From: a virus
Lineage: Duplodnaviria > Heunggongvirae > Uroviricota > Caudoviricetes
Strand: one strand, 5' to 3'
IMG/VR virus record: IMGVR_UViG_2541047122_000023
DNA: 8,509 bases
Shown here: positions 1,892-3,146 of the stretch, in pieces
How positions within the stretch are numbered: position 1 is the stretch's first letter
How the letters are laid out: each line of letters opens with the position of its first letter
The notes under the pieces: model-generated
Told to the model about the DNA's origin: nothing
Databases searched by the model: none
What the model saw: only the letters and a program-made list of their open reading frames with translations
Translations under genes and position numbers: made by a program

Positions 1892-2060
1892 CTAGTGAGC
1901 TTTATACATTTAAGTGCGATGCACAGATAATAACCACGCCAATGGAATATCACACACAAAATTGATAGAACACTAACAATAAGCCACAAAATAATTCACA
2001 ATTTATTTTTACAGTGGATAAGTAGCAAAGTAGTGAATGTGAATAACGGCTAACTAAGAT

Positions 2061-2089
2061 GAAACAAAAAGCCCCACAATATGTGGGGC
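2061..2089 (-). terminator. Intrinsic terminator downstream of the two-gene AT-rich cassette (minus strand)
   Basis: GCCCCACA-ata-TGTGGGGC (2071-2089) is an 8-bp stem. On the minus strand it is followed by TTTTTGTTTC (complement of 2070-2061). It lies 60 nt past the stop of the 61-aa gene. Confidence 0.6.
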
Positions 2090-2148
2090 TCCTTCGCGAT
2101 TTATAGTAAAATAATCGATTCTCTAGCTGAAAAAATCTTTAAAAATTA

Positions 2149-2334
2149 TCAGCAATACGCAAGTTTTTTACCGTCATCCGGTACTAGTTTGATCACTACA
2201 CCAGGATTCTTACGCTCTAACATCTGAGTTTGACTCCATGTAATACCAAAGGTTTCCATTGGAGATGCATTGCCAGCAAAGAGTTCGGCGACGACTTTAG
2301 CTGCCTCAATCTCTATCTGCTCATGATGTTTCAT
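2149..2334 (-). CDS. Hypothetical small protein, 61 aa (MKHHEQIEIEAAKVVAELFAGNASPMETFGITWSQTQMLERKNPGVVIKLVPDDGKKLAYC)
   Basis: ATG at 2334-2332 is preceded by a strong SD (AAGGGG, 5-nt spacer); the longer 77-aa ORF from 2382 lacks this. Followed by an intrinsic terminator. AT-rich codon usage like the neighbouring 180-aa gene. No recognisable family by recall. Confidence 0.5.
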   Translation of the reverse strand: MKHHEQIEIEAAKVVAELFAGNASPMETFGITWSQTQMLERKNPGVVIKLVPDDGKKLAYC

Positions 2335-2525
2335 AAAAATCCCCTTGTTCAGCACTAAGCTGTAGTTGCTTCTTTGAAGCATAAAGGCAACAAAGTTTGT
2401 TACCTGAAGATGTATAAAGTAAAGCGTAGTACATTTTGTGTGTGCTTTGTGTGGATCCAGATTGCATCAACTAAAAGAGGTTTTCAATACTTTTGTAATG
2501 ATTCTGGAGAAATTAAGAATCTAAC

Positions 2526-3068
2526 TCACACTGATTGGTTAGGTAAAACGCTCCTAAGCACCATTGCGCAACCACCTCGTTCGTAATCAGCAATGTACTC
2601 AAAACCACTTTCAGTATAGTATCTTATTGCCCCATCAACTGGACTAACTAAAGCTATCGAATCAATAGATTCACCCTGAAGGTTCAGAAATCGTGCATAT
2701 GCAGAGAAGCAATCCAAAACGATACCAAGCATCTGATGGTCTAGGTCTTCATGTGCATCATTACGTTTTTCCATCCAGCAAATATGCACCGCATTTTTCG
2801 GCTTACAGTAACACCCAAATGCAAATCCAATAGGCTCCCCACGATAATAAACAACTAGTTTTATCGGGTGTTCTTCCATCATATCCATAAACACTCGCGA
2901 CTTTAGTCCGGGATCCCACCGCAGTTTATTGTTAGCCTTGAGGAACTCCATATCTTTTAGTACCAGCTCGTCGGCATATACGAGCCCTAACGACTTATGA
3001 GGGAAGCGCCCTTTTAAATACTCTGCAACATTTTTAAATACTGCTGTTTGGAAGGCTTGAAACATCAT
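2526..3068 (-). CDS. Hypothetical protein, 180 aa, with a possible GNAT-like acyltransferase core in the C-terminal half
   Basis: Clean 180-codon ORF starting ATG ATG at 3068. The C-terminal half shows a pattern reminiscent of the GNAT fold: hydrophobic strand IKLVVYYRGEPIGFAFG, then HQMLGIVLDCFSAYARFL (a QxxGxx-like stretch), then GAIRYYTESGFEYI (resembling GNAT motif B ending in GF). Assignment is from motif-level resemblance only. AT-rich relative to flanking phage genes. Confidence 0.55.
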   Translation of the reverse strand: MMFQAFQTAVFKNVAEYLKGRFPHKSLGLVYADELVLKDMEFLKANNKLRWDPGLKSRVFMDMMEEHPIKLVVYYRGEPIGFAFGCYCKPKNAVHICWMEKRNDAHEDLDHQMLGIVLDCFSAYARFLNLQGESIDSIALVSPVDGAIRYYTESGFEYIADYERGGCAMVLRSVLPNQSV

Positions 3069-3095
3069 GTCGATCCAGACGAGACGAAAGTTTAA

Positions 3096-3125
3096 ATTCT
3101 ACCTACTCGCCGAATACCATTTCAA
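3096..3125 (-). promoter_or_regulatory. Candidate sigma70 promoter for the AT-rich cassette
   Basis: On the minus strand: TTGAAA (3125-3120), 18-nt spacer, TAGAAT (3101-3096). Predicted start near 3088, about 20 nt upstream of the ATG at 3068. Hand-identified; no scoring matrix applied. Confidence 0.35.
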
Positions 3126-3146
3126 TGCCACACATCTAAAATTCCG

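Follow-up and report, generated by a model that had tools for sequence, protein, structure and literature searches.

In lambdoid prophages, the site between the late antiterminator gene Q and the holin gene holds Shiga toxin and other fitness genes. The 8,509-nucleotide (nt) stretch of phage DNA analysed here (IMG/VR record IMGVR_UViG_2541047122_000023, called the window throughout) carries at this site, between pR'-tR' and the lysis genes and on the same minus strand as Q and the lysis genes, a cassette of two genes encoding proteins of 180 and 61 amino acids (ORF180 and ORF61). The question raised by this locus is where the cassette came from and what its two products may do together. Comparative genomics indicates that the segment 1887-3147 is a horizontally acquired phage moron, inserted directly downstream of the terminator tR' in a lambdoid prophage of the SfV/mEp460 type; the moron is genuine and uncharacterised, the function of the pair being undescribed so far. 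That it constitutes a mobile, functionally coupled two-gene unit is very likely. Its features are the following:

1887-3147, minus strand: inserted low-G+C segment, 1261 nt with 39.2% G+C.

3096-3125, minus strand: P1, candidate sigma70-like promoter, TTGAAA-N18-TAGAAT, with the ATG of ORF180 about 27 nt further downstream.

2526-3068, minus strand: ORF180 (WP_021519681.1), a hypothetical protein in RefSeq, assigned to phrog_11949 (function unknown).

2459-2487, minus strand: P2, promoter-like box, TTGAAA-N15-TGCAATCT or alternatively TTGAAA-N17-CAATCT, 38 nt after the ORF180 stop.

2385-2405, minus strand: leader hairpin, AGGTAACAA-ACT-TTGTTGCCT, with a weak U-tract.

2340-2346, minus strand: Shine-Dalgarno sequence of ORF61, AAGGGGA, conserved in all loci of the gap alignment.

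2149-2334, minus strand: ORF61 (WP_000680348.1), a hypothetical protein in RefSeq, assigned to phrog_11292 (function unknown).

2066-2094, minus strand: intrinsic terminator downstream of ORF61, a 13-pair stem followed by TTTTTGTTT, found by a terminator scan.

1887-2065, no strand: AT-rich spacer from the cassette terminator to the methyltransferase remnant, absent from other carriers of the module.

The limits of the insert were identified by comparison with SfV, which shares with the window the Q gene, the tR' terminator, the 3' end of a methyltransferase gene and the lysis genes, and is homologous to it at 3148-4348 (95.6%) and 650-1886 (93.7%). Between these blocks, 1261 unrelated nt of the window stand where SfV has 1145 nt, made up of orf47 and the first approximately 683 nt of the orf48 methyltransferase. 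Comparison with mEp460 gives the same junctions, and the insert is missing from both phages although both of its flanks are 92-96% identical to theirs. The right junction falls in the T-run of tR', which is an element of the resident phage (the homologous position of SfV is also annotated as a terminator). At the left junction the insertion has cut a methyltransferase gene that is intact in SfV and mEp460, where it encodes 350 amino acids; what is left of it in the window, immediately preceded by an in-frame TAG (1892-1894), is listed in RefSeq as a pseudogene 'missing N-terminus' and matches PF01555 (N6_N4_Mtase, E = 7e-18) at profile positions 156-209 only, in the C-terminal part. The resident features bordering the insert are:

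3280-4032, minus strand: antiterminator Q (PF03589, E = 8e-53).

3147-3176, minus strand: tR'-type intrinsic terminator after Q, AGAAAACCCGC-TGATGT-GCGGG followed by T8, found by the terminator scan.

1577-1891, minus strand: remaining 3' part of the N6/N4 DNA methyltransferase gene of the resident phage, a pseudogene cut by the insertion.

The composition of the insert also departs from that of its surroundings: its G+C content compares with 49.6% in the left flank and 52.8% in the right, sliding-window G+C dips from a level of approximately 50-55% to one of 34-44% over roughly 1850-3350, the lowest-G+C stretch of 1261 nt in the whole sequence (38.9%) lies within the region of the insert, and G+C at third codon positions is 0.37-0.38 in ORF180 and ORF61 versus 0.45-0.67 in the phage genes. 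An original prediction, made from the letters of the sequence alone, had described an AT-rich cargo (about 38% versus about 52% G+C) at 1892-3144 in the Q-to-holin site, with its left edge at the truncation point of a methyltransferase marked by the TAG at 1892-1894. The computed composition bears this out, as does the order of Q, tR', cassette and holin with no insert in SfV and mEp460; the predicted limits are at most 5 nt from the homology breakpoints, and the remnant and its stop codon are as described, 5 nt from the homology junction.

The insert is found at 99% identity or more in 98 of 5426 complete Escherichia coli genomes (approximately 2%), many of them O157:H7, but the mobile unit is evidently smaller. 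The 262 nt tested at its left end (1887-2148) occur only in the same 98 genomes, the G+C content of 1892-2148 is 32.7%, and the 258 nt at 1887-2144, terminator included, belong to the E. coli version of the module alone. Most other loci have a terminator at the equivalent place, but of different sequence. Since the DNA common to module carriers is restricted to approximately 2145-3100 of the window (to 3173 in the closest relative), the unit that moves consists of P1, ORF180, the intergenic gap and ORF61. The exact ORF180 and ORF61 sequences are present on at least 1000 contigs and in one of 50,697 phage records, an in-silico prophage. Homologues of ORF180 form 28 clusters at 90% identity, and of 1.84 billion cluster representatives searched with a profile, only 36 were hit at E <= 0.001; homologues of ORF61 form 49 clusters, of which all taxon-named ones belong to the Enterobacterales. 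The conjugative E. coli plasmid CP044351.1 (39590-40100) has a 67%-identical copy of ORF180 in three tblastn pieces, probably frameshifted.

Throughout the loci examined, which come from Escherichia, Citrobacter, Erwinia, Proteus, Pragia, Limnobaculum, Photorhabdus, and IMG/VR and metagenome contigs, a homologue of ORF61 of 58-65 amino acids lies 88-226 nt downstream of every full-length relative of ORF180, down to approximately 25% identity. In L049, where the larger protein is 31% identical to ORF180, the small homologue is an uncalled open reading frame (ORF) of the source record (hidden Markov model (HMM) E = 3e-16), and in L059 and L060 (approximately 25-30% identity) it was recognised at HMM E = 4e-10 and 2e-13; in L052 (21% identity) there is a similar ORF of 54 amino acids with a marginal HMM score (E = 0.0057 among four sequences, 4.4 bits; E = 0.48 in a separate search). 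The two proteins have diverged at nearly equal rates, and their pairwise distances over 18 loci are correlated with r = 0.92, a value reached by none of 5000 Mantel permutations. The ratio of nonsynonymous to synonymous substitutions (dN/dS), against relatives with near-saturated synonymous sites, is 0.03-0.05 for both genes (approximately 0.04 for ORF61). Both genes of the cassette are under strong purifying selection.

Read along the minus strand, the conserved core is ordered P1, ORF180, second promoter-like box, hairpin leader, ORF61. A promoter of the cassette had been proposed at 3096-3125, and P1 is there, with TTGAAA-18-TAAAAT at the same position in three relatives of 75-82% DNA identity (L030, L004 and L032); it is this conservation, not the consensus match itself, that supports P1. 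The terminator that had been proposed at 2061-2089 was recovered by the scan at 2094-2066. A second promoter-like box and a structured leader, both in the gap of 191 nt between the two genes, had been overlooked. The P2 block is the sole strongly conserved non-coding block across loci with saturated synonymous sites, and canonical promoter sequences are found in the gaps of remote members: TTGACT-16-TAAGAT in L049 and TTGACC-17-TAGAAT in L052, each directly after the stop codon, and TTGACT-17-TATTTT in L059, approximately 28 nt after it. In the simplest reading of these sequences, P2 is a dedicated candidate promoter of ORF61. The element was also compared by hand with sigma54 and sigma32 promoters, and its hexamers and their spacing did not agree with either.

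The leader between P2 and ORF61 is predicted by RNAalifold, from five relatives, to contain 12 base pairs in two helices, eight in the 2385-2405 hairpin and four in a stem at 2350-2362; four pairs keep pairing despite changes on both sides, all of them within the hairpin. The equivalent of this hairpin in several relatives is a full intrinsic terminator, and the element could be an attenuator of the P2 transcript, the 3' end of the ORF180 mRNA, or both. The start of ORF61 is taken to be the methionine that gives 61 amino acids, not an upstream ATG that would give 77, because of the conserved AAGGGGA and the starts of the homologues.

ORF180 had been described as a GNAT-like protein and neither product of the cassette had been recognised. 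Both statements stand in part or in full: ORF180 has a GNAT fold, as modelled, with the mixed beta-sheet, the splay of beta4 and beta5, alpha3 and alpha4, but no sequence model recognises it, and neither protein has a match in Pfam or NCBIfam, their only assignments being the PHROGs noted above. The absence of ORF180 from Pfam extends to Acetyltransf_1, 3, 7 and 10 and related models (only 2 of 41 family members reach even E = 0.11 with Acetyltransf_1), and phmmer and profile searches of PDB sequences with ORF180 and with ORF61 gave nothing relevant. The pair is thus common, by the counts given above, yet uncharacterised, whereas the original prediction would have yielded to the finding of well-characterised families at this locus. 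An alignment by hhalign, weak in itself (pairwise E = 0.013, probability 3%), places the beta5-alpha4 segment of ORF180, IALVSPVDGAIRYYTESGFE, on motif B of RimI in the expected register, and sets Y151 on the usual catalytic tyrosine. In an alignment of 41 sequences that extends to members of 20% identity, Y74 and G85 alone are invariant, and at least 90% of the sequences share Q7, D39, E100 (in beta4), P143, G155 and Y162. ORF180 carries an extra N-terminal helix. On its structural model, ORF180 is a highly divergent acyl-CoA N-acyltransferase-like protein, a GNAT by fold only.

ORF61 is modelled as three short helices (residues 2-18, 25-28 and 33-42) followed by a disordered tail (pLDDT 78), and no structural neighbour of this model was found. 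Its conserved core is P25-M-E-x-F-G-x-x-W33...E40-R-x-x-P44. The tail has basic residues and a cysteine in most members from Enterobacteriaceae, but not in remote members; a C-terminal cysteine was considered as a hallmark of the family and rejected, being missing also from some close members. Neither profile nor fold comparison identified an HTH_3-type domain that would make ORF61 an Xre/Cro-type helix-turn-helix (HTH) protein.

The flanks of the module vary among loci while the ORF180-ORF61 pair stays together. The module follows Q proteins of two unrelated families (PF03589 and PF06530); in a Citrobacter locus it adjoins an integrase; and in Pragia fontium L011 (LR134531.1, 5001-7745) it lies after the lysis genes and before a Pyocin_S-domain gene, upstream of a terminase gene. 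A gene of 100 amino acids is found downstream of the Pyocin_S-domain gene in L011. The 31%-identical pair of L049 (GCA_000968645.1, 1418-4939) adjoins a P2-like portal gene on the opposite strand, with putAbiC and Ogr_Delta genes as neighbours. In P2, the cos-proximal stretch that separates gpA from the portal gene is a hotspot (Rousset et al. 2022, PMC9122126), the main text of that paper containing no mention of GNAT or acetyltransferase; gpA was not seen in the L049 locus. Xenorhabdus poinarii L057 (FO704551.1, 2348-3918) has an orphan homologue of ORF61 between a HigB-like/HTH pair and a ParE/HTH pair, in a methyltransferase-to-holin interval like that of the window, and this site in L057 accumulates toxin-antitoxin (TA) modules. 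In Xenorhabdus bovienii (L054-L056, 2395-3150) a truncated ORF61 homologue of 49 amino acids follows a DUF7823 gene, which has apparently taken the place of the upstream gene; DUF7823 was considered as a hidden relative of ORF180 and rejected (hhalign probability 0.07%). The presence of putAbiC and the P2 hotspot, and of higBA- and parDE-like genes, in the company of these relatives is compatible with a TA-like or defence function.

The original prediction had offered defence, superinfection exclusion, a TA-like pair or lysogenic conversion as possible functions. It is plausible that the cassette encodes a coupled pair expressed from the prophage, given the co-occurrence and co-divergence of the two proteins, the promoter-like box of ORF61, and the accessory sites that the module occupies in unrelated prophages. 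In a lysogen, the cassette would be transcribed from P1 and P2. During lytic growth, Q-modified RNA polymerase from pR' would pass both tR' and the cassette terminator, and the pair would be co-expressed with the lysis genes; this step is modelled on established lambdoid Q biology, in which Q-modified RNA polymerase from pR' reads through tR' into stx. The constant pairing suggests that the two proteins bind each other, with ORF61 inhibiting or regulating the ORF180 enzyme, and the likelihood that they are such an enzyme and inhibitor or regulator is evenly balanced. A pairing of this kind would make the cassette a toxin-first TA-like or abortive-infection-type accessory module, to the advantage of the lysogen or of the prophage itself. 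A TA-like or anti-phage function of the pair is proposed only tentatively, and the most specific form of the proposal, a new two-component prophage system in which a loop-less GNAT-fold effector is held by a separately promoted, attenuator-controlled ORF61 for TA or abortive-infection defence, is likewise possible while somewhat doubtful. Taken as a compromise over three layers, the favoured explanation as a whole falls just short of an even chance.

Several findings weigh against this explanation. The motif A loop between beta4 and alpha3 (Q/RxxGxG/A) is not present in ORF180, both glycines being missing; in its place is an acidic, histidine-containing loop, R102-N-D-A-H-E-D-L-D-H, of which R102-N-D-A-H-E is found in close relatives, while remote members have unrelated loop sequences. 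Y151 (in alpha4) is invariant among close relatives only and lost in remote members. Since the CoA loop is missing and this tyrosine is not kept throughout the family, ORF180 could use another donor or be non-catalytic, and the conservation pattern of E100 and Y151 is only suggestive of acyl-CoA binding or acyl transfer. ORF61 has no detectable DNA-binding domain; neither protein matches any family of PADLOC-DB v2 at E <= 1; and type II TA operons do not usually have a gap of 191 nt with a hairpin in it. Promoter-like matches in this AT-rich region are no more numerous than chance would give (2, against 5.1 expected from shuffled sequence), and in this respect the proposed promoter gains nothing from its match count.

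Alternatively, ORF61 could be a substrate or precursor acylated by ORF180, giving a bacteriocin-like or signalling product at lysis or an acyl carrier, and constant pairing with equal divergence would fit a substrate as well as an inhibitor; the location of the module mostly in the late or lysis region, beside the lysis genes in the lambdoid loci and in Pragia L011 with its adjacent Pyocin_S gene, and the disordered tail with its basic residues and cysteine in most Enterobacteriaceae members also agree with this. ORF61 has, however, no leader or export signal and no linked transporter or protease gene, the cysteine and basic tail are missing from remote members, in which the helical core is the conserved part, and no lysine, serine or cysteine is invariant across the family, all of which make a substrate role unlikely. 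A little less unlikely is lysogenic conversion, in which ORF180 would acylate a host metabolite, an antibiotic-like compound or a host protein to the benefit of the lysogen, with ORF61 as a mere regulator or chaperone and with no toxicity or anti-phage role. The module is always prophage-borne, and its hosts live in very different ways (E. coli of cattle and humans, Erwinia as a pathogen of plants, Photorhabdus and Xenorhabdus as pathogens of insects). Such a spread argues for a target that is phage-centred or generic to cells and against a niche-specific one, and an obligatory small partner and a non-canonical cofactor loop are atypical of housekeeping-type GNATs. If instead the position after pR' is decisive, the pair could be a phage counter-defence or lytic helper, for example acylating a component or signal of host defence. 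GNAT-fold proteins are common in phages and most loci have the module within the Q-dependent late transcription unit, but counter-defence genes are as a rule early rather than late, the pair has promoter-like boxes and a terminator of its own, and it also occurs outside late operons (beside the Citrobacter integrase, and beside the P2-like portal gene on the opposite strand), so that this role is distinctly improbable.

Two further possibilities are effectively refuted or nearly so. The 191-nt separation with apparently separate promoters, and the shortness of ORF61 and its lack of a family annotation, would suit two unrelated morons that are neighbours by chance, or an ORF61 that is no real gene; such an origin is hardly credible for a small protein that accompanies every full-length relative to approximately 25% identity, diverges in step with it (r = 0.92) and is itself constrained (dN/dS approximately 0.04). 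Membership in the GNAT/RHH type II TA systems (TacAT, AtaRT, KacAT and ItaRT), whose toxins acetylate aminoacyl-tRNA, is similarly remote from the findings: there is no Acetyltransf or DUF1778/RHH match in Pfam, the small gene is downstream at a distance of 191 nt with its own promoter-like box, the acetyl-CoA loop is missing, and GNATs of other kinds score equal to or above the toxins in comparison with ORF180.

The long ORFs of the window are all on the minus strand and make up the early-right and late parts of a lambdoid prophage, in the order N6-adenine methyltransferase, LexA-like protein, RusA, KilA-N, DUF968, Q, the cassette, holin (PF05106), GH24 lysozyme and Rz/Rz1. A prophage of E. 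coli O157:H7 strain ECP19-598 matches this DNA at 99.8% identity. The match ends at position 8216, after which the window contains the end of an IS3-family transposase gene (8217-8509, with an ORF at 8258-8464 on the minus strand); an insertion sequence (IS) element appears to interrupt an HTH-domain replication-type gene (7725 onward) in the source strain, and the prophage may therefore be defective. The N6-adenine methyltransferase of the early region (6581-7234, minus strand) is a second, intact phage enzyme, so that the phage still has a Dam-type enzyme despite the loss of the late methyltransferase.

The pR'-to-tR' leader after Q (approximately 3147-3248, minus strand) has a lambda-like pause-type sequence, AATGATAGG, and a terminator. 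By analogy, it could be a source of a short late-leader RNA resembling 6S or StxS. A scan of 1500-3500 with Rfam gave only sub-threshold matches (AgrB, Leu_leader and isrK), located around this leader, and none in the cassette. In the lysis region, an ORF for an Rz1-type lipoprotein (LVVVGCTS, proline-rich; 226-408, minus strand) is nested out of frame inside Rz (167-628), as is usual for lambdoid spanins, and the start of holin is a GTG at 1536 in the ORF list versus a gene of 336 nt in RefSeq.

The cassette is a good experimental candidate and not a surprise in kind. It is found also in prophages of Citrobacter, Enterobacter, Erwinia, Proteus, Photorhabdus and other genera, and a compact, mobile, co-evolving pair of approximately 1 kb is a well-defined and cheap target for experiments. 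Should the pair prove to serve in defence or as a TA module, prophage immunity would gain a GNAT-fold class of effector; should it modify host or phage proteins, this would represent a new conversion function co-expressed with the lysis genes. The ORF180 family, which no Pfam model covers, illustrates a diversity of the GNAT fold that sequence models overlook.

A literature search found no paper on ORF180, ORF61 or their pair, and the comparison with known systems is therefore one of parts. ORF180 shares the fold of the GNAT superfamily and differs from it in the pyrophosphate loop, the extra N-terminal helix and its escape from sequence models. Compared with TacAT, AtaRT and KacAT, the gene order of the cassette is reversed, the small gene being downstream of the large one, across a gap with a promoter-like box of its own; ORF61 is not an RHH/DUF1778 protein, and ORF180 does not have the canonical acetyl-CoA motif. 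Among toxin-first TA modules, rnlAB (of prophage CP4-57), higBA and mqsRA have an additional promoter that serves the antitoxin; the cassette likewise has the large gene first and the small gene second with a promoter-like box, in a prophage, a likeness that is architectural only and not accompanied by homology of the proteins. The 31%-identical pair of L049 adjoins a portal gene such as borders the P2 cos-proximal hotspot, but the copy in the window is in the late region of a lambdoid prophage. The closest parallels in overall form are the phage morons (stx, and bor and lom of lambda). From these the cassette differs in having proteins with no characterised relative, in an insertion that deleted part of a resident methyltransferase gene, and in an internal second promoter-like box with a structured leader; like them, it is a putative promoter-gene-terminator unit of deviant G+C content, present or absent between homologous phages, and like stx-type cargo it lies directly downstream of pR'-tR'.

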